Source of the DNA: a virus
Length of the DNA: 64,000 bases
Virus record (IMG/VR): IMGVR_UViG_3300044714_000124
Location: 5,577-69,576 of that record
Reading direction: 5' to 3' (one strand)
Under the pieces are notes generated by a model that was not told where the DNA came from, did not search any database, and saw only the letters and a list, made by a program, of their open reading frames with translations. Numbering within the stretch: position 1 is the first letter of the stretch; every line of letters begins with the position of its first letter. The position numbers and the translations under genes are program-made. Of this stretch, positions 2,737 through 63,997 are shown piece by piece.

Positions 2737-3006
2737 ATGTCCGGCACGTCGACCCGCACCAAGTATTTTTCATTGCGTCTGCCCAATGCTTTGTGGAGCG
2801 AGCTTCAGCACAGAGCGAATGCGCGGGGAACCTCGATGTCATTCGAGATGCTGTCGGGATTGACGCTGTTGCCGGCGCGCGAGGAAGCACTGATTGACGC
2901 ATGGCGGGCGCTTGAACGCGACAAACCAAGCCGCAGCGAGGCCGTCAGGCGGCTGGTATTGAGGCAATTACGGGGACGGAAGCCACGGGAGGGATTGGAT
3001 GGCTAA
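2737..3006 (+). CDS. ribbon-helix-helix (Arc/CopG-like) DNA-binding protein
   Basis: KYFSLRLPNALWSELQHRANARGTSM and IDAWRA...PSRSEAVRRLV are two RHH-like segments; overlaps the start of the effector gene. Confidence 0.7.
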   Translation: MSGTSTRTKYFSLRLPNALWSELQHRANARGTSMSFEMLSGLTLLPAREEALIDAWRALERDKPSRSEAVRRLVLRQLRGRKPREGLDG

Positions 3007-4366
3007 GCGCACGAGACCGGTCGATGGCGTCAATCGCCGTTATACGTGGCGGCTCTATCCGCTGCGCGAGCAGGAGGAAATTCTCTGGCAGCAAGCGCGG
3101 ATGTGCGCCGATCTGTGGAATGCGCTGCTTGAGATGTGCGAGACGATCGAACAGCGCCTGCATCAGCGGCTGTCGTGGATCGACGGCGTTGGCGGCCGGC
3201 ATCGCGGCGTGGTCACTCATGATGAGTGTTGGTACATGACGGCTCAGGGTCCGAGTCGTCATCCGCCCGACGGTGACGCCGAGAAAGCGCGCCGTAGCGG
3301 CCTGCCGTCGGAATACGACATGGGTTATTGGATCACCGCGATGCTGCGCGAATTACCTGAGTGGCGGGCGCTCTCGACCTGGACGCCGCGCCGGGTGGCG
3401 ACCAGTTTGACGGCGGCTTGGAAAGCATTCTTTCGGCGCGTGCGCGAAGGGCAAACCGGTGCCGAGGCCGGCTATCCGCGCTATAAGTCGCGGCGCAAGG
3501 CCGCAAGCGTGCCGCACCGCTCGGTGAGCGGGTGCACCTTCGAGAAGTCGGCGACCCATCCGCGGGCCTGGGCGTTGCATCTCAAGGGCGTCGGCGGTCC
3601 TGGATGGAGCGGGATCGGTTGGGGCACTTACGGGCTCGATGCTGGAATTCCCGCTTTGGGCGTTGTGCGCCTTGCGGCAGCGCCGACCGAATGGCTCGAC
3701 GTCGATGTGGTACATCGCGGCGGCCATTGGGAGGCGTCGGCTGCGGTCGCGATCGCGGCGCCGCGGGTCGCGGGCAACCGGCCGGTCACTGTACGGCTGG
3801 ACCTGCTCGACGGGTTTTGTCTGGTCAACAACATGCCTGACACGCCGCCCGAACTTGTCGATGCCGCGATAGTGGCGGAAGATTGCGATCGGCTGCAAAC
3901 TGAGTTTGATCTGCGCTGGCCGCGCGGCAGGCGGTTGACGGATGATGAGCGCCGGAGCCGGGAAGCAGAATGGGGGGTCATCGCTCGCAAAATGAGACAT
4001 GTCGCCGACAAGCGCCGTAACGCGCTGCATGTCTGGTCGGCGCGCCTGGTGGCCCGCGCGAGCGTTATCACGGTGATCATGCCGGCGCCGAAATCGGCAA
4101 CGCGCAGTGCGCGCGGCGATGAAAAACAATGGGGTGCGGCCGTGGCTGACGTGGCGCGGGTGAACCGGGGCGCCTTGAATTTTGCACCGGCGATGGCGGC
4201 GCAGATGCTGCGATACAAGGCGGGCGAGGCGGGCATTGCCTGCACAATAGTCGAGGATAGCGAGCCTAAGCTGGCCGTGGCGCCTCGATTGGTGCAGGCG
4301 GTAAAAACCGTGAGGACCGCATCGCGCGGTGTGCGGCGGCCGGCGGTGTTACGTCATGCCGATTGA
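2999..4366 (+). CDS. TnpB-derived compact Cas12-like RNA-guided protein, predicted nuclease-dead (Cas12m/TldR-like)
   Basis: TnpB N-terminus RRYTWRLYP...EQ...LWNALL; AWKAFF...GYPRYKSR; degenerate RuvC-I (VTVRLDLL); RuvC-II ITVIMPAPKSATRSARG has Ile at the Glu position; LRYKA..AG motif; no CxxC Zn finger or RuvC-III; adjacent CRISPR array. Confidence 0.85.
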   Translation: MAKRTRPVDGVNRRYTWRLYPLREQEEILWQQARMCADLWNALLEMCETIEQRLHQRLSWIDGVGGRHRGVVTHDECWYMTAQGPSRHPPDGDAEKARRSGLPSEYDMGYWITAMLRELPEWRALSTWTPRRVATSLTAAWKAFFRRVREGQTGAEAGYPRYKSRRKAASVPHRSVSGCTFEKSATHPRAWALHLKGVGGPGWSGIGWGTYGLDAGIPALGVVRLAAAPTEWLDVDVVHRGGHWEASAAVAIAAPRVAGNRPVTVRLDLLDGFCLVNNMPDTPPELVDAAIVAEDCDRLQTEFDLRWPRGRRLTDDERRSREAEWGVIARKMRHVADKRRNALHVWSARLVARASVITVIMPAPKSATRSARGDEKQWGAAVADVARVNRGALNFAPAMAAQMLRYKAGEAGIACTIVEDSEPKLAVAPRLVQAVKTVRTASRGVRRPAVLRHAD

Positions 4367-4724
4367 TCCGGCAATCGCGACTGAAATTGCCGCGCTCGAC
4401 GAGTCGATGGCGATGGCGAGAGCGGCTTTCGATGGCGCCGAAAGCGTCTTCGATTCGACGGCGTCGATCGCCGGCAAGCGGAAAATCGAAATCGCACATA
4501 TCGAGCTTGGTGCCGCGCGAGCCATGATCAACGCGACGCGGCTGCGATTGCTCGGGCGTTTGATGGCGCCGCGATTGTTGCGGCACGAGGCATTAACGGT
4601 GGGAACCGCCGCCGTGGTTGCGAGCGCTGCGGCGCCGCGTTCTGTGCCGGGAGCGCTCGATGCGGAAAATATCAGTTCCAACAATAACTTGCGCGGTGGC
4701 CGAAAGGGAGTTGATGAATCATGA
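4356..4724 (+). CDS. small helical protein between the effector and the CRISPR array
   Basis: ATG at 4356 overlaps the effector end; 122 aa, Ala-rich amphipathic helices. Confidence 0.5.
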   Translation: MPIDPAIATEIAALDESMAMARAAFDGAESVFDSTASIAGKRKIEIAHIELGAARAMINATRLRLLGRLMAPRLLRHEALTVGTAAVVASAAAPRSVPGALDAENISSNNNLRGGRKGVDES

Positions 4725-4795
4725 CATGGGAAGAGAAAGAGCGCTCGCAAAGGTCACAAAAATGATAGGATGGACAAGAGGATATGGGTTACCGG

Positions 4796-5792
4796 GTGTT
4801 GCGGCCCGGCTCGCCGGGACGGAAGCGAGATGTGGTTACCGAATTACATTGGTCGCGGACGGCCATGGTGTTGCGGCCCGGCTCGCCGGGACGGAAGCGA
4901 GATAACCACTCCCTAGCACAGATCGCTGTGTTTGCAAACAGGTGTTGCGGCCCGGCTCGCCGGGGGGGAAGCGAGATGAGCAGATCGGCAACCGCGCGAC
5001 GCATTCTCTGCACGGGGGTGTTGCGGCCCGGCTCGCCGGGGAGGAAGCGAGATGTTCAGCGCCTCGACGCATTCGCCGACGAAGATGTGCAGGGTGTTGC
5101 GGCCCGGCTCGCCGGGGAGGAAGCGAGATGGGTTGCCGACGCGCCCAACTGGACGGGTGACCAAAGGTGTTGCGGCCCGGCTCGCCGGGACGGAAGCGAG
5201 ATGGGGGCGGAGTCCGAGGAGGGGCCGACGGCGGAGCCTTGTGTTGCGGCCCGGCTCGCCGGGACGGAAGCGAGATAGCGGAATGAAACCAATTCCGACG
5301 GCCTTTGCCGATTGTGTTGCGGCCCGGCTCGCCGGGAAAGAAGCGAGATGAACCTTGCGGCCCCAGCATTTCCGACCGCGCTATGTGCGAGTGTTGCGGC
5401 CCGGCTCGCCGGGGCGGAAGCGAGATAAAAAATAGAGCCGGGAAACATCCTGATTCCGTGGATGTGTTGCGGCCCGGCTCGCCGGGGCGGAAGCGAGATG
5501 TCTTAATTTGGTTGAGGGCGGTGGCTGTCGTCGCCCGGTGTTGCGGCCCGGCTCGCCGGGGAGGAAGCGAGATTGGCGCGCCGGCTGATAAACGGACGCA
5601 ACACCCTTTGTGTTGCGGCCCGGCTCGCCGGGGAGGAAGCGAGATCGGATCATGTGAACCCCCAACAACCGGGGCCGCGCGGAGGGTGTTGCGGCCCGGC
5701 TCGCCGGGACGGAAGCGAGATCAGCAGACAAGCCTGGCAAATTCGCGGCCGGGATTGTGTTGCGGCCCGGCTCGCCGGGGAGGAAGCGAGAT
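4796..5792 (+). CRISPR. CRISPR array 1: 14 repeats, 13 spacers (35-41 nt)
   Basis: 36-nt repeat GTGTTGCGGCCCGGCTCGCCGGG(ACG/GAG/GCG/GGG/AAA)GAAGCGAGAT starting at 4796, 4868, 4942, 5018, 5094, 5167, 5241, 5314, 5391, 5464, 5538, 5610, 5686, 5757. Strand inferred from the effector orientation. Confidence 0.98.
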
Positions 5793-5821
5793 AAGGTTTC
5801 CACATGGAAGGCAAATAAACA

Positions 5822-7115: not shown

Positions 7116-7633
7116 TGAAAACCAGCGACGACGGCCGACGACTGATCGAGGCGTTTGAGGGACTGTTTTTGTCGGCCTACGACGATGCCGATGATCGGAT
7201 CATGAAGCTCGGTCAGGTCGTTCGCGGGACACTGACAATCGGTTACGGGCACACTTCTGCCGCAGGGCCGCCCAAAGTATATATCGGCATGACGATCACG
7301 CACGAGGAAGCGGATTCATTTCTTTCCTCCGACCTGACCAGCGTCGAGTTGGAAATCGCCCATCTGGTGAAGGTGAGCCTCGATCAACAGCAGTTTGATG
7401 CGCTGGTCTCGTTCCAGTACAACACCGGCTGGCTGGCGCATCGTCAATGCTCGCTGCTGGCAGCGCTTAATGCGGGAAATTACGATTTGGCTGACAAGGA
7501 TTTTGGGCTATACGACGAAGCCGCCGGCAAGGTCCTTGCCGGCTTGCAGCGGCGCCGGAGGGCCGAGGCTTTGATGTTCTCCGGCAAAGTGCAGCAGGCG
7601 TTTGCTGTGGCGGGGGTGCCGGTTGTATCATGA
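7115..7633 (+). CDS. endolysin, lysozyme (GH24-like)
   Basis: LIEAFEGLFLSAYDD...LTIGYGHT...QQQFDALVSFQYNTG...GLQRRRRAEALMF. Confidence 0.92.
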   Translation: MKTSDDGRRLIEAFEGLFLSAYDDADDRIMKLGQVVRGTLTIGYGHTSAAGPPKVYIGMTITHEEADSFLSSDLTSVELEIAHLVKVSLDQQQFDALVSFQYNTGWLAHRQCSLLAALNAGNYDLADKDFGLYDEAAGKVLAGLQRRRRAEALMFSGKVQQAFAVAGVPVVS

Positions 7634-8117
7634 CGGCCCGGCTCGCCGGGGCGGAAGCGAGATCGCAACGTCGCAACGTCGCAACGCCGCAACGCCGACA
7701 ACTGTTGACAGAGGTGTTGCGGCCCGGCTCGCCGGGGAGGAAGCGAGATATTAAAGTTAACGAAGACATCCTAAGTCATCGACAAGGTGTTGCGGCCCGG
7801 CTCGCCGGGACGGAAGCGAGATATATCCCAAAATAATGCTTGCTAGTTCGAATAGCAAGGTGTTGCGGCCCGGCTCGCCGGGGCGGAAGCGAGATAACCA
7901 CTCCCTAGCACAGATCGCTGTGTTTGCAAACAGGTGTTGCGGCCCGGCTCGCCGGGGGGGAAGCGAGATAAAAAATAGAGCCGGGAAACATCCTGATTCC
8001 GTGGATGTGTTGCGGCCCGGCTCGCCGGGACGGAAGCGAGATGATCCAAATCTTGTACGTCTTATCAATCGCCTCATTGATGTGTTGCGGCCCGGCTCGC
8101 CGGGGAGATAGCGAGAT
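7628..8117 (+). CRISPR. CRISPR array 2: 7 repeats, 6 spacers, same repeat as array 1
   Basis: Repeats at 7628 (5'-degenerate, overlaps the endolysin stop), 7714, 7787, 7860, 7934, 8007, 8082; two spacers are identical to array 1 spacers. Confidence 0.97.
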
Positions 8118-8296
8118 CAAGAAGTCGTGGATGCGTCCCACAACGCCAGCAAGGCGTTCATTCTTTCGTCCTGCCTGGCGAGTTCCAGCCACGATTGAGC
8201 GATCGACAAGCGCAACAAGCGTTCCCGCGGTGGGAATGCCAGTGCCGCGCTCAGGCATTCAGCGGCAATCAGGCGGTATCGTTGCCAGTTCTGCAT
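8117..8296 (-). CDS. small protein (59 aa) resembling short helical proteins common in rhizobial genomes
   Basis: Manual translation MQNWQRYRLIAAECLSAALAFPPRERLLRLSIAQSWLELARQDER; AAGGA RBS. Confidence 0.5.
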   Translation of the reverse strand: MQNWQRYRLIAAECLSAALAFPPRERLLRLSIAQSWLELARQDERMNALLALWDASTTS

Positions 8297-16485: not shown

Positions 16486-18207
16486 ATGTCGCTGCAATCA
16501 CCCGCTCTGCTCGGAGGTTTCAAGCGTGCGCTCGATCGTTACGCCGACCAGTTGCTTCGCAATGAGCATTCGACGCGTGGCTATCGCGACGCCGAAGGCG
16601 TGTGGTGCTGCGGGCTCTACAGTTTCGTCCAGCATTTCTGGCGCGTGATCGAGCCCGAGACGCCGATGGTGCCCGGCTGGCCGATGGAGGCGATCTGTCA
16701 GCATCTGGAAGCGGTCACATTCGGCGATATCACGCGGCTGCTGATGAACGTATCGCCCGGCAGTTGCAAGAGTTTGCTGGTCGATGTGTTCTGGCCCGCG
16801 TGGGAATGGGCGATCGGTTATTCGCACTACCGCTATGTGACGTTCTCCTACTCCGCATCGCTGACGGAGCGCGACAACGGCCGCTTTCGCGACCTGATCG
16901 CGAGCGCGGCCTATCAGCGGCTCTATGGCGATGTCGTAACTCTGCGAAACAAGACGACGCTGAAAGTGATCAACACCGCGACCGGCTGGAAGCTTGCGTC
17001 CTCAGTCGGCGGCGTGGGTACCGGCGAGCGCGGCGACCGGATCATCCTCGACGATCCGCACAACGTCAAGGACGCCGAGTCTCAGATTGTCCGGGACGAG
17101 ACGGTGCGCTGGTTTCGCGAGTCGATGAGCAATCGCCTTAACGATTTGGAGCATGGCGCGATCGTGATCATCATGCAGCGCGTTCACGAGGACGATGTGT
17201 CCGGGGCGATCATCTCGTTGCGGCTTGACTACTGCCATTTACTGATCCCGATGGAGCATGAATATGTGCGCAAACCGAACGAGATCGGATGGAGCGATCC
17301 GCGCGACGATGATGACGATGCGGAAATACTCTGCTGGCCGGAACGGTTTTCGGCGGCCGTGGTCGAGCGCACCAAGCGCGAAGTCGGGCCTTACGCCTGG
17401 GCCGGTCAGTATCAGCAGACACCCGCTCCTCGCGGCGGCGGCATATTCAAGCGCGAATGGTGGCAGGAATGGCGCGACGAGCGCGGTAAATTCCCCGTCT
17501 GCGATCTGGTGATCGCGTCGCTTGATGGGGCGTTCACTGAAAACGAAGAAAACAGCGCCTGCGCCCTCACGGTATGGGGAACCTTCACGCATCCCGAACA
17601 CAAGCGCCGGCGCATCATCCTGCTTCACGCTTGGCGCAAGCATCTGCAATTCTCCGGTGCGCGCATCGAGCGTCTGCCCCATGAAATCATTCTCCCGGAA
17701 ATGCACGAGGAAGTCCGCAAGGCCCGCAACCAGATGTATCGCCGCCGCTGCATGAGTTCGCAGACGTGGGGCCTGATCGAGTGGACGCGCGACACTTGCG
17801 TCCGCTTCAAGGTCGATCGCCTCTTGATCGAAGCGAAGGCAAGCGGCATGTCGGCAGCCCGCGAATTGCGCAGCCGTTACGGCAACGAGAATTACGCGGT
17901 GCATCTGTGCAAGGTGACCGCGGACAAATACGCGCGCGCACAAGCGGCGCAGCCGACCTTTTCGCAGGAGCTCGTCTACGCGCCGTGGAACCTTGCCATC
18001 GACAACTGGTATACCCACGCCGAAACCGTGATCGACGAGATGGCGGTATTCCCGAAAGGCAAGTACGACGACTTGACCGACTCGGCGACTCAGGCGATCA
18101 AACACCTGCGCGATCTGGGCTTTGCCAACACGGACGACGAGGCAAGCGCGATCGAGATCGACGCGGTCACTCACAGGCCGCAGCCCAAGCCGCTTTATCC
18201 GGTGTAA
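16486..18207 (+). CDS. terminase large subunit
   Basis: RLLMNVSPGSCKS, GTGERGDRIILDDPH, IMQRVHEDD, GQYQQTP, FPKGKYDDLTDS. Confidence 0.95.
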   Translation: MSLQSPALLGGFKRALDRYADQLLRNEHSTRGYRDAEGVWCCGLYSFVQHFWRVIEPETPMVPGWPMEAICQHLEAVTFGDITRLLMNVSPGSCKSLLVDVFWPAWEWAIGYSHYRYVTFSYSASLTERDNGRFRDLIASAAYQRLYGDVVTLRNKTTLKVINTATGWKLASSVGGVGTGERGDRIILDDPHNVKDAESQIVRDETVRWFRESMSNRLNDLEHGAIVIIMQRVHEDDVSGAIISLRLDYCHLLIPMEHEYVRKPNEIGWSDPRDDDDDAEILCWPERFSAAVVERTKREVGPYAWAGQYQQTPAPRGGGIFKREWWQEWRDERGKFPVCDLVIASLDGAFTENEENSACALTVWGTFTHPEHKRRRIILLHAWRKHLQFSGARIERLPHEIILPEMHEEVRKARNQMYRRRCMSSQTWGLIEWTRDTCVRFKVDRLLIEAKASGMSAARELRSRYGNENYAVHLCKVTADKYARAQAAQPTFSQELVYAPWNLAIDNWYTHAETVIDEMAVFPKGKYDDLTDSATQAIKHLRDLGFANTDDEASAIEIDAVTHRPQPKPLYPV

Positions 18208-31984: not shown

Positions 31985-32117
31985 CTAACATAGCCCGGCT
32001 CGCCGGGGAGGAAGCGAGATGGCGCGTTGATAAAGGAGTTAATCGAGAGCTGCGTGGAGTGAACGGCCATTGCGAGCATTTGTATTGCGGCTCGGCTCGC
32101 CGGGACGGAAGCGAGAT
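31985..32117 (+). CRISPR. CRISPR mini-array 3 (two repeats of the array 1 family, 61-nt spacer)
   Basis: GCCCGGCTCGCCGGGGAGGAAGCGAGAT ending at 32020 and GTATTGCGGCTCGGCTCGCCGGGACGGAAGCGAGAT at 32082-32117. Confidence 0.9.
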
Positions 32118-34635: not shown

Positions 34636-35334
34636 ATGCTCACCGATCGCGATACCAAGCATTGGGCGCCGCTCCAGGCGGTAACGGATCATCTGTGCCG
34701 GATCATTCCGGCGGGCGCCAAGGTGCTCGATGTCGGTCCGGGTCATGCGCCGTTTGCGCGCGCCGATGCTTCCGTCGATTTCCAGGACGCGCCGGGAGCG
34801 AAGAATCTGACGAAATGCGACTTTGCCGTCGAGGCGCTGCCGTTTTCCGACAAGAGCTTCGATTTCGTGTACTGTCGCCACGTCCTCGAAGACCTCCATG
34901 ATCCATTCCATCTGATTGCCGAAATGTCTCGCGTCGGGAAAGCGGGCTATATCGAGACGCCGTCGCCGTTCGCCGAATTGACGCGCGGAGTTGACGGGGG
35001 CTCGCCGCCGTGGCGGGGCTATCACCATCACCGCTGGATCATCTGGTCGCGTCAACTCAGCGAGGCTTTGCGTGCCGATGAATTGTGTTTCGTCTCCAAG
35101 TTCCCGATGATCGAACACGATTCGCGGCTCGACGACCTCGAACCGCTGTTGCGTGCTTCTGCCCGGCGGTGGAATACTTATCACCTGTGGAGCGATCAGA
35201 TCTTCGTCAAACATCATCAGAATCCGCTCGATTTCCGCATGCCGGAAGGCTATCAGGGCCTGTTGTTCGCGGCAGCGGCCGGTTCGCAGAATGCGACGGA
35301 TCGGTTTTTCGGGGAGAATAACATTGGCTCATAA
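34636..35334 (+). CDS. class I SAM-dependent methyltransferase
   Basis: KVLDVGPG, LPFSDKSFDFVYCRHVLED, GYIETP. Confidence 0.88.
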   Translation: MLTDRDTKHWAPLQAVTDHLCRIIPAGAKVLDVGPGHAPFARADASVDFQDAPGAKNLTKCDFAVEALPFSDKSFDFVYCRHVLEDLHDPFHLIAEMSRVGKAGYIETPSPFAELTRGVDGGSPPWRGYHHHRWIIWSRQLSEALRADELCFVSKFPMIEHDSRLDDLEPLLRASARRWNTYHLWSDQIFVKHHQNPLDFRMPEGYQGLLFAAAAGSQNATDRFFGENNIGS

Positions 35335-36328
35335 GCTTTTCATCTTCGTCCCCGCCTTCGGGCATCTGGTGACGACCACGACATTCCTCACCACCCATGC
35401 GCTTCAACAGGGCCTGGGCGCTCGCGGCATCCAGGCCGGCATATCGTCCCTGTCGTTCCCCGATATCGCCGAACTCCGCGCCATGGCCTTGACCGTGTTC
35501 TACGACACGTCGGATTTCTCGCATCTGCTGTTCGTCGATTCGGACATGGGCTTCGCTCCCGATCTCGTATTCGACATGCTGCTTCTCGACGAGCCGATCG
35601 TGGGCACGCTCTACCGCCAGCGCCGCGAGCCCGTATCGTGGGCCGGCTCCGGCAACGGCGCCCCGACCACGGAGCGCCGTGCCGGCTTCATGAAGGTCGA
35701 AGGCGTCGGCATGGGCTGTACGCTGATCCGCCGCGACGCCGTCAAGGCGATCATCGAAAAATTCCCCGAGATCGTTGACGTGCGCCTCGAACTCCACCCG
35801 GCTCGCGATATCCTGTTCGGGTCGGGTGCCCGGCGCCTCATTCGCGCTTTCGAGAAGATCGATATTCCCGGCCGCGGCATCGTCAGCGAGGACCTGTCGT
35901 TCTGCATGCGCTGGAACCAGTGCGGCGGCAGCGTATGGGCGGCGATCAATCATCGTATTTCCCACGTCGGGCAATACGACTATAATGGGCGGTTTCTGGA
36001 CGACGTCGAGCGCCAGGCGGCGATGGAGGCGGCGAAAGCGGGTCAGGGACAGGTCGTAAAACCGACGACGGTGGCTGAGTTGGAAAAAATATTAAACGAT
36101 CCAAATCCTCCTGAAGTGAACGTTATGCCCGATGGCAGATGTGAACCAGCGTCCACGGTCGTCACAGCACCGGATTCCGATAGGAATTTGGGAAGCGATG
36201 CCGACCAAATCGTCCGGGAGGCGAGGCCGAATCCTCAATATCAGCCGTCGAACGGCGATTGGGAAAAATGGGCAGCGGACACAGGAACGAATTACCCCAA
36301 AGCAGAGGCGCCGCGCGACGCGATCTAG
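35324..36328 (+). CDS. glycosyltransferase-like protein
   Basis: SHLLFVDSDMGF, VGMGCTLIRR, SEDLSFCMRW, ISHVG. Confidence 0.75.
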   Translation: MAHKLFIFVPAFGHLVTTTTFLTTHALQQGLGARGIQAGISSLSFPDIAELRAMALTVFYDTSDFSHLLFVDSDMGFAPDLVFDMLLLDEPIVGTLYRQRREPVSWAGSGNGAPTTERRAGFMKVEGVGMGCTLIRRDAVKAIIEKFPEIVDVRLELHPARDILFGSGARRLIRAFEKIDIPGRGIVSEDLSFCMRWNQCGGSVWAAINHRISHVGQYDYNGRFLDDVERQAAMEAAKAGQGQVVKPTTVAELEKILNDPNPPEVNVMPDGRCEPASTVVTAPDSDRNLGSDADQIVREARPNPQYQPSNGDWEKWAADTGTNYPKAEAPRDAI

Positions 36329-40938: not shown

Positions 40939-41040
40939 TGGAGGATTAAACTTGATGCTGCCGCCAGCGAATAGGTTATCACGTTCGGGCTTCAATGAGG
41001 CCGAGGCGTGGATAGCCCCGGAAATCTGTTTAATCCTCCA
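40939..41040 (-). CRISPR. single-spacer unit B with a type I-G-like repeat
   Basis: Minus-strand repeat GATTTCCGGGGCTATCCACGCCTCGGCCTCATTGAAGC (41026-40989), spacer 40988-40954, perfect 13-bp flanking inverted repeat TGGAGGATTAAAC/GTTTAATCCTCCA. Confidence 0.8.
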
Positions 41041-63961: not shown

Positions 63962-63997
63962 GGGTGAATACCCGGCTCGCCGGGAAGGCAGCGAGAT
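63962..63997 (+). CRISPR. repeat of the array 1 family at the window end (possibly the start of a fourth array)
   Basis: CCCGGCTCGCCGGGAAGGCAGCGAGAT with a degenerate 5' end, immediately after the TGA at 63959-63961. Confidence 0.8.

Follow-up and report, generated by a model that had tools for sequence, protein, structure and literature searches.

A predicted nuclease-dead, TnpB-derived protein with CRISPR-like repeat units and a conserved partner gene in a phage genome

What use might a phage have for a relative of TnpB and Cas12 that seems no longer able to cut DNA and that is encoded next to a CRISPR-like array? The question is raised by a viral genome from soil, 69,576 bp long (IMG/VR record IMGVR_UViG_3300044714_000124), of which bases 5577–69576 form the stretch of 64,000 nucleotides (nt) analysed here and called the window; coordinates are those of the window unless the genome is named. 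Judged from its sequence, a protein of 455 amino acids (aa) encoded near the start of the window descends from a TnpB/Cas12 RNA-guided nuclease and has kept the guide-binding fold. We propose, with a probability of roughly 0.6, that it acts as an RNA-guided DNA binder that does not cut, similar in action to TldR and Cas12m and multiplexed in the manner of CRISPR. Guide-dependent binding without cleavage is the simplest reading because the fold is kept, the cutting site is lost, the system has its own repeat units and the setting is a phage. The four elements listed in an earlier note on this DNA, namely open reading frames (ORFs) for a ribbon-helix-helix (RHH) protein, the 455-aa protein and a 122-aa protein together with an array of 14 repeats, are all present on the + strand. 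The gene for the 455-aa protein, hereafter the effector, lies as follows.

2999–4366, + strand: TnpB/Cas12-like effector (P0001), 455 aa, recognized by Pfam, PDB profile, PADLOC and Atlas-model matches.

The effector is assigned, from profile matches and a predicted model, to the TnpB/Cas12 fold across nearly its full length because these four lines of evidence agree. Its N-terminus matches Pfam HTH_OrfB_IS605 (PF12323) with 25.8 bits against a cut-off of 21, and this is the sole Pfam domain in the protein. A PDB profile search with a query built from 26 family members gave chain 9j09_A of Cas12n as the best match (E = 3.2e-12, profile positions 2–380 of 421), followed by a TnpB-like nuclease designed by artificial intelligence and then by ISDra2-type TnpB chains (E ~1e-7); entry 9J09 is described as the structure of Cas12n (PMC12216341). 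The PADLOC models for Cas12f (E = 3.6e-15) and Cas12u4 (E = 4.3e-14) match residues 319–423. The ESM Atlas model of an identical protein has a predicted TM-score (pTM) of 0.60, and its nearest structural clusters are TnpB, with TM values of 0.64–0.67 over residues 7–435. The NCBIfam model guided_TnpB scores the effector at 60.5 bits, under its cut-off of 100, and the effector is therefore a divergent member of the TnpB/Cas12 superfamily; these searches together uphold the TnpB/Cas12-like identity given to it in the earlier note.

A word-indexed protein search returned 75 relatives, the most distant at 31% identity, on contigs that reach 100 kb. In an exhaustive search, 342 clusters (at 50% identity) passed E ≤ 1e-3, and 84 passed E ≤ 1e-30. 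A profile search with the family alignment A1 recovered the same 75 proteins with one difference and no more distant relatives, and none of the effector's relatives carries a functional name. For the comparison of loci, 16 were taken from viral contigs and two from metagenome-assembled genomes (MAGs; labelled Hyphomicrobiaceae and Rhodoblastus). Many homologues, the window protein not among them, contain a CxxC...C..H motif in a variable insertion after the N-terminal helix (A1 columns ~130–190), which is possibly a small zinc-binding module in a REC-like region. In-frame tandem repeats of 60–66 nt also occur within homologue ORFs (L016:5519–5713, L019:1699–1909 and L019:2217–2393).

The profile alignment with 9j09_A places Ile360 on the RuvC-II Glu, as the earlier note had proposed, and Asp268 on the Asp of a GxDLG-like RuvC-I motif; we take these two positions to be the catalytic sites of the TnpB motifs. 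Residues were counted in 169 full-length relatives (375–601 aa, median 451) among 217 proteins from two protein searches. The RuvC-II column is acidic in just three of the 169. At RuvC-I, Asp is found in 130, Gly in 18 and Asn in 14, with residues other than Asp (Gly, Asn or other) in 38. Pro362 is kept in 161 relatives, and Asp or Glu at position 271 in 150, for which we offer no explanation. The effector ends 48 residues past the Tyr of the YKA motif and has no CxxC pair; the median tail after this Tyr is 48 aa in the 169 relatives, none of which has two CxxC motifs or a RuvC-III segment. Because short, CxxC-free tails recur throughout these relatives, the loss of the Zn finger and RuvC-III is family-wide and extends beyond a single copy. 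An active TnpB/Cas12 nuclease has an intact RuvC Asp-Glu-Asp triad and a C-terminal Zn finger, and here both are missing; the loss of the canonical triad and the C-terminal truncation, first noticed in this one protein, hold across the family of 169.

A protein of this kind could still act as a nuclease through a site rearranged around Asp268 and Asp271, or through a nuclease supplied in trans, and would then belong to an interference-competent phage CRISPR system like Cas12r or Cas12j. The conservation of Asp268 and Asp/Glu271 favors this, catalytic-site rearrangements are documented in TnpB (PMC10691335), and Cas12r (10.64898/2026.04.20.719267) and Cas12p (10.1101/2025.01.20.633832) are described as active, phage-borne miniature type V proteins. 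A selected catalytic site would not, however, vary as much as the RuvC-I and RuvC-II columns do here, nor is RuvC-III or the Zn finger left in any full-length relative, and we regard continued cutting as very improbable.

The repeat units of this phage are located as follows.

4796–5792, + strand: array 1, with 14 repeats of 36 nt (GTGTTGCGGCCCGGCTCGCCGGGNNGNNAGCGAGAT) and 13 spacers of 35–41 nt.
7628–8117, + strand: array 2, with seven units and six spacers.
8142–8158: terminator-like hairpin just past array 2.
31985–32117, + strand: mini-array between two + strand genes, consisting of a hairpin-only unit, a 61-nt spacer and a near-full repeat.
63962–63997, + strand: solitary hairpin unit inside the 127-bp terminal repeat, equivalent to genome 89–124 and upstream of a gene for a 1304-aa protein.
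Genome 4439–4549 and genome 4819–4930, − strand: two unit pairs upstream of the window, four units in all.

In total, the phage has 28 distinct units at six places and 22 spacers, of which 20 are distinct and 20 (of the 22) are 35–41 nt long. The 14-repeat array of the earlier note is therefore present, but array 2, the mini-array, the terminal-repeat unit and the four upstream minus-strand units had been missed. The first unit of array 2 retains only the hairpin part, its 5' part being gone, and overlaps the lysozyme stop codon, and spacers 2 and 9 of array 1 recur unchanged in array 2. The unit pairs each begin with a hairpin-only member followed by a full repeat. The minus-strand pairs are downstream of, and co-oriented with, a minus-strand gene for a 412-aa protein (genome 5024–6262), the nearest confident gene. 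Spacer GC content ranges from 35% to 79%, and several AT-rich spacers appear by eye to hold inverted repeats or terminator-like hairpins, as in intergenic DNA. The first spacer of array 2 (7664–7713), 50 nt long and made of tandem 8-mers CGCAACG(T/C), is unlike the other spacers.

Contigs of ~96%-identical strains (soil runs X2 and X3) break at the arrays, and the parts that they leave uncovered were not counted as evidence. The end of array 1 differs in these strains (window 5724–5803): their contigs join the last-but-one repeat to the post-array sequence with 18–20 other letters between, and at one such joint 78 nt are skipped and 18 other letters stand in their place. The reverse complement of the 5' part of the repeat, which would mark an anti-repeat or a trans-activating CRISPR RNA (tracrRNA), occurs at chance frequency in the sequence of this phage (G000) and is absent near the gene in relatives. 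The repeat itself matches no CRISPR-DR family in Rfam. Elsewhere in the window, an intergenic segment at 40989–41026 on the − strand, unrelated to the array repeat, matches Rfam CRISPR-DR16 with 37.5 bits (gathering threshold 35; E = 2.4e-5); this may be a chance match or an isolated repeat-like unit from a host CRISPR type.

Related units accompany the related effectors. Tandem Repeats Finder, which uses no model of the unit, detected arrays of related consensus downstream of the gene in L002, L004–L008, L010, L011, L013 and L015. A covariance model gave 225 matches at E ≤ 0.01 in 20 sources, a count that is not independent of the model since the latter was built from 75 distinct units of the same loci. 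By this model at least two homologous units are present in 14 of the 18 related loci, one in L014 and none in L001, L016 and L019; L016 has a different array of 36-nt repeats downstream of the gene, with the same repeat inside the gene, and L001 has a 27-nt tandem repeat. The unit matches share the strand of the gene; the exceptions are a single weak one (E = 0.007) and this phage's four minus-strand units. When five relatives are viewed over their complete records, the units are grouped no more than a few kb from the gene, apart from a few outliers. The locus thus has what a type V CRISPR-Cas system, broadly defined, should have: an array of direct repeats with unique spacers beside the effector gene, kept in relatives. 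The view that the effector has its own array is borne out, and the comparison supports the array as cognate to the effector because related proteins carry related repeat units.

The unit contains two potential helices. Helix 1 is a 5-bp CCCGG/CCGGG stem that closes a CUCG loop, and in helix 2 this 4-nt loop can pair with a 3' CGAG directly ahead of the spacer. In an alignment of 75 rows, 98.5% of cells are paired, compared with 91.3% in shuffles and 19–49% when the partner is slid. Double-sided changes affect three of five pairs in helix 1 and two of four in helix 2, so that the stems differ among loci yet remain complementary; the covariation of helix 2 is partly circular, as the search pattern required complementarity at its two variable pairs. 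Consensus repeats obtained independently (by Tandem Repeats Finder and repeat finding) show the same compensations: CGCGC/GCGCG, CCTGC/GCAGG, CCCGC/GCGGG and CGTGC/GCACG. The two helices may exclude each other or may form together as a very tight pseudoknot. Guide RNAs of Cas12 and TnpB are described as generally having a pseudoknot beside the guide (10.1101/2025.01.20.633832).

Such units lend themselves to a different explanation, in which they are cis-acting RNA elements for processing, stability or antitermination that the protein binds and the intervening sequences are not guides at all. Units do stand alone or as pairs between genes, in the orientation of their neighbors, and one of these places is the terminal repeat; their spacing is irregular in relatives, and no spacer targets were found. 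Arrays of 14 and seven units with unrelated, non-coding spacers of uniform length are, however, hard to explain in this way, as are the two spacers kept as duplicates across two arrays, and in all known members of the protein's family the guide follows a structured scaffold on its 3' side, the same arrangement as here. We consider it decidedly unlikely that the units serve only in cis.

The hairpin-only units scattered in the genome could also suggest a decoy or anti-CRISPR, the units mimicking host type V repeats and the dead protein or its RNAs soaking up host Cas proteins or CRISPR RNAs (crRNAs). Phages with solitary repeats, and dead Cas homologues acting as mimics, are on record (PMC10910872, phage Cas9). 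On the other hand, in distant relatives the repeat changes along with the protein of the same phage, the arrays hold many distinct spacers, the repeat has no counterpart among the CRISPR-DR families and a matching host array was not seen in the 401 genomes searched (see below), all of which makes a decoy scarcely credible.

The earlier note had proposed a search for spacer targets in host genomes and mobile elements. When this was carried out, no protospacer was found for any spacer across all collections searched, including order-level genomes, plasmids and phages, and therefore no protospacer-adjacent or target-adjacent motif (PAM/TAM), target class or target strand was derived. Searched against their own phage genome with blastn-short, all spacers gave only the two duplicated spacers and matches of chance size, and exact seed matches from spacer position 1 in this genome were at the level of shuffles. 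Array 1 matched, at E ≤ 0.01, 71 of 401 genomes sampled from the order of G002, a MAG that holds a homologue; all of these matches are short, GC-rich and partial and fall in unrelated genes, and many extend into the repeat. Array 2 gave no match in the same 401 genomes. The obg gene of G002, which matches 21 of 22 positions at a spacer start, was rejected as a target because the spacer matches 25–29 of 40 positions in unrelated genes of nine other genomes. Array 1 gave only chance or repeat-like matches to plasmids and phages, the arrays of relatives L010 and L005 had no match in plasmids and the L018 array matched only itself in its own MAG. Both arrays showed only repeat-to-repeat similarity to the whole records of ten related phages, and comparison of the spacers of all loci with all compared loci returned only spacers common to close relatives. 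Finally, 24-nt spacer starts, four of them against viral contigs and two against metagenome contigs, yielded no protospacer.

The genes flanking the effector differ in how well they are conserved, and the features concerned are as follows.

4356–4724, + strand: small partner ORF, 122 aa from ATG 4356 (131 aa from GTG 4329).
2737–3006 from ATG (longest ORF from GTG 2713), + strand: RHH/Arc-like gene (RHH_1, E = 2e-4; Arc, E = 0.019).
2622–2708: operator-like cluster of four copies of G(C/T)AACACAC, upstream of the RHH gene.

The small ORF overlaps the effector stop by 11 nt at its start. ORF clustering over 17 loci (G000 and 16 others, the duplicate L006 and the fragment L015 being left out) identified it as the sole conserved neighbor, directly downstream and on the same strand in 15 of the 17; the 122-aa ORF had been listed beside the effector, with its conservation overlooked. 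Its alignment contains a helical core of ~70 residues. The partner protein matches no family in Pfam, PHROGs or PADLOC, and the ESM Atlas returned only low-confidence helical look-alikes.

Conservation of a translationally coupled partner raises the possibility that the dead effector is an RNA-guided recruiter that brings the small protein, or a host factor bound to it, to the target. The factor might be RNA polymerase, a nuclease or a recombination or replication protein, with activation, degradation in trans or another targeted reaction as the outcome. A plain repressor would not need a partner, and there are precedents: dead Cas12f homologues are reported to drive transcription with a sigma factor (PMC13472631), Cas12k works with Tn7, and CasMu-V has lost RuvC-III (PMC10910872). 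Against this stands the gene content of the phage. Searches for Cas1, Y1 TnpA, tyrosine integrase, rve, TniQ and Sigma70_r2 gave zero matches across the complete 69,576-bp genome, and control genomes gave matches in every search (seven of 14 for Cas1 and ten of 14 for Sigma70_r2); no search was aimed at Cas2. The genome consequently shows neither the Tn7-like or Mu transposition genes (rve, TniQ) that are the hallmark of Cas12k in CRISPR-associated transposons (CAST) and of CasMu-V, nor the extracytoplasmic function (ECF) sigma factor partner (Sigma70_r2) that is the hallmark of sigma-associated dead Cas12f. As the partner protein itself also matches no family, recruitment seems unlikely, if less so than the other alternatives. 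The statement that the window has no cas1 or tnpA context was confirmed genome-wide for Cas1 and Y1 TnpA, within the same limit for Cas2.

The RHH ORF overlaps the effector start by 8 nt at its end. No RHH homologue was found beside the effector gene in relatives, and the RHH gene, which had been counted as part of the system, turned out to be specific to this phage, without a counterpart in the relatives' loci. The cluster upstream of it looks like a putative operator for the RHH protein: it holds a perfect 13-nt inverted repeat (2673–2685 and 2692–2704) and three exact copies of GCAACACAC, with 0.39 expected and three reached in none of 100 shuffles. Arc-type RHH proteins are reported to repress the promoters of TnpB-carrying IS605 elements (10.64898/2026.09.24.754181). 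The repeat of this phage opens with the 7 nt GTGTTGC (e.g. 4796–4802), whose reverse complement is the operator motif GCAACAC, and the repeats of relatives start ..GCAACA.. or ..TCAACA.. in the opposite orientation.

Among known systems, the best solved relative in sequence is Cas12n (type V-N, V-U4), with which the family has in common the motif block ..SxxG....G.xV...S.LNR..L..A......L.YKA. Cas12n keeps RuvC-III and the Zn finger. The Cas12n chain 9j09_A (540 residues) has Glu-Asp at RuvC-II, whereas this family is hydrophobic there and lacks both the RuvC-II Glu and everything beyond ~48 residues after YKA. Cas12n has been reported to act as a nuclease and as a genome editor (PMC12216341).

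Like Cas12m, the system combines a compact type V effector with an array, has no adaptation genes and is found on a mobile element. At ~600 aa Cas12m is larger than the 455-aa effector. Cas12m structures are present in the PDB, and no Cas12m chain appeared at E ≤ 10 in the PDB profile search. Cas12m is mostly plasmid-borne, whereas the effector here is encoded by a phage. Cas12m binds DNA and blocks transcription without cleavage (review PMC11656645).

In predicted action the system also resembles TldR, which is described as a phage-borne, nuclease-dead TnpB homologue without TnpA that binds DNA under RNA guidance without cleavage and that has a similar RuvC decay and C-terminal truncation (10.1101/2023.11.30.569447). 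Each TldR is described as relying on one adjacent guide RNA, whose scaffold is long and omega-RNA-like, and as lying beside fliC or oppF; here, in contrast, there are 28 short (28–36 nt) units in CRISPR-like arrays, a small partner gene and an integrase-free phage. The single guide that marks TldR, with an omega-RNA-like scaffold and a match to a promoter beside a TAM, was not found, and 36-nt repeat arrays and scattered units occupy its place. The TldR clades are set apart from this family by their description, not by sequence.

Cas12r, an effector encoded by the Thermus Lalka phages, is likewise described as derived from TnpB, with a CRISPR-like array of short degenerate repeats after its gene; it is crRNA-only, has no adaptation genes and has been suggested to take part in conflicts among mobile elements (10.64898/2026.04.20.719267). 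According to the same source, it differs in its length of 564 aa, its active RuvC (D238A abolishes interference) and its restriction to thermophiles. The present family, by comparison, is dead and smaller, comes from soil phages and has a partner gene. CasPhi, like Cas12r, is an active nuclease. Cas12p (500–700 aa, with a tracrRNA) is reported to be an active phage-borne nuclease (10.1101/2025.01.20.633832) and Cas-lambda a phage-encoded miniature type V nuclease (PMC12141684). Dead, array-linked variants of Cas12 have been described as transposon-linked Cas12k and CasMu-V (PMC10910872), as sigma-factor-linked proteins and as plasmid Cas12m (PMC11656645).

The 40 V-U groups reported by Altae-Tran et al. 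(2023; PMC10691335) include some with altered catalytic sites (V-U24, V-U43 and V-U44). As described there, these three are TnpB-derived and array-linked, and V-U24 is linked to a helix-turn-helix (HTH)-domain protein; the likeness to our family is one of description only. We found in the literature no description of a nuclease-dead, array-linked TnpB/Cas12 in such phages, the sequences and loci of the V-U groups not having been compared, and there is a real chance that the family is already catalogued among these groups without functional study.

The phage origin of the DNA, as assumed from the start, is established by the terminal repeats together with the following genes.

16486–18207: large terminase (TerL), a phage gene.
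19820–22078: portal, a phage gene.
7112–7633: lysozyme, a phage gene.

The last 127 nt of the genome are identical to the first 127, and the collection classes the genome as having direct terminal repeats and as 100% complete. Its GC content is 60%. Further phage genes encode an AAA_24 protein, a methyltransferase, a replication initiator, a virion structural protein and a DNA ejection protein, and the terminase is at most 40% identical to that of any deposited phage. The host range probably lies in the Hyphomicrobiales, given the binning labels of the two homologue-bearing MAGs. The 1304-aa protein encoded at genome 168–4082 (L017), which begins shortly after the terminal-repeat unit, matches in its C-terminal 150 residues many PHROGs annotated as large virion, DarB-like or endolysin proteins. 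A 598-aa ORF at window 27666–29462 matches the PHROG heptose 7-phosphate kinase/heptose 1-phosphate adenylyltransferase (E = 5e-21), and window 35153–36328 has a weak match annotated as a glycosyltransferase; these two ORFs are possible surface-sugar auxiliary genes.

If the effector is a non-cutting, RNA-guided DNA binder, the system might operate as follows. The arrays and scattered units would be co-transcribed with the surrounding phage operons, as their co-orientation suggests. By analogy with Cas12 and TnpB, in which the guide is 3' of the scaffold, each unit would give rise to an RNA with a ~28-nt 5' handle and then a spacer-derived guide. The handle would include the 5-bp hairpin, whose 4-nt loop can pair with the 3' CGAG, covariation supporting both helices. 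The effector, probably together with the small partner protein, would bind guide-complementary DNA without cutting and, once bound, may keep targets from being transcribed or replicated during infection, whether these belong to the host or to rival mobile elements.

Several observations weigh against guided binding without cleavage. Asp268 (130 of 169) and Asp/Glu271 (150 of 169) are fairly conserved, so that a residual or rearranged metal site is possible. The spacing of units is irregular in several relatives (35 to ~130 nt), unlike in classical CRISPR arrays and in this phage. The folding energy of the repeat is no better than that of shuffles (z from −0.1 to −1.2), and only the first hairpin is predicted. 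The failure of every spacer to find a protospacer is to be set beside these points.

We tentatively go further, at somewhat less than even odds, and suggest that the effectors form a so far undescribed and widespread phage family (342 clusters) that provides a natural, multiplexed form of CRISPR interference ('CRISPRi'). A dead, truncated TnpB with its partner would be directed by dozens of guides with pseudoknot handles, set in arrays and also seeded singly into different transcription units so as to act at different times of infection; host or rival genes would be silenced, and the arrays would grow without Cas1.

The system differs from the known dead relatives in three respects: it is multiplexed, with 20 distinct guides; it has a conserved partner; and its units are placed in several transcription units of an integrase-free phage. 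It would join two ideas that have not been seen together, those of dead TnpB regulators (TldR) and of phage-borne CRISPR-like arrays. If binding is confirmed, 455 aa and a crRNA-only handle would place it among the most compact programmable DNA binders. The system bears on how small a guide handle (~28 nt) a protein of TnpB size can use, on how arrays originate and turn over without Cas1 and on what a lytic phage gains from programmable DNA binding.

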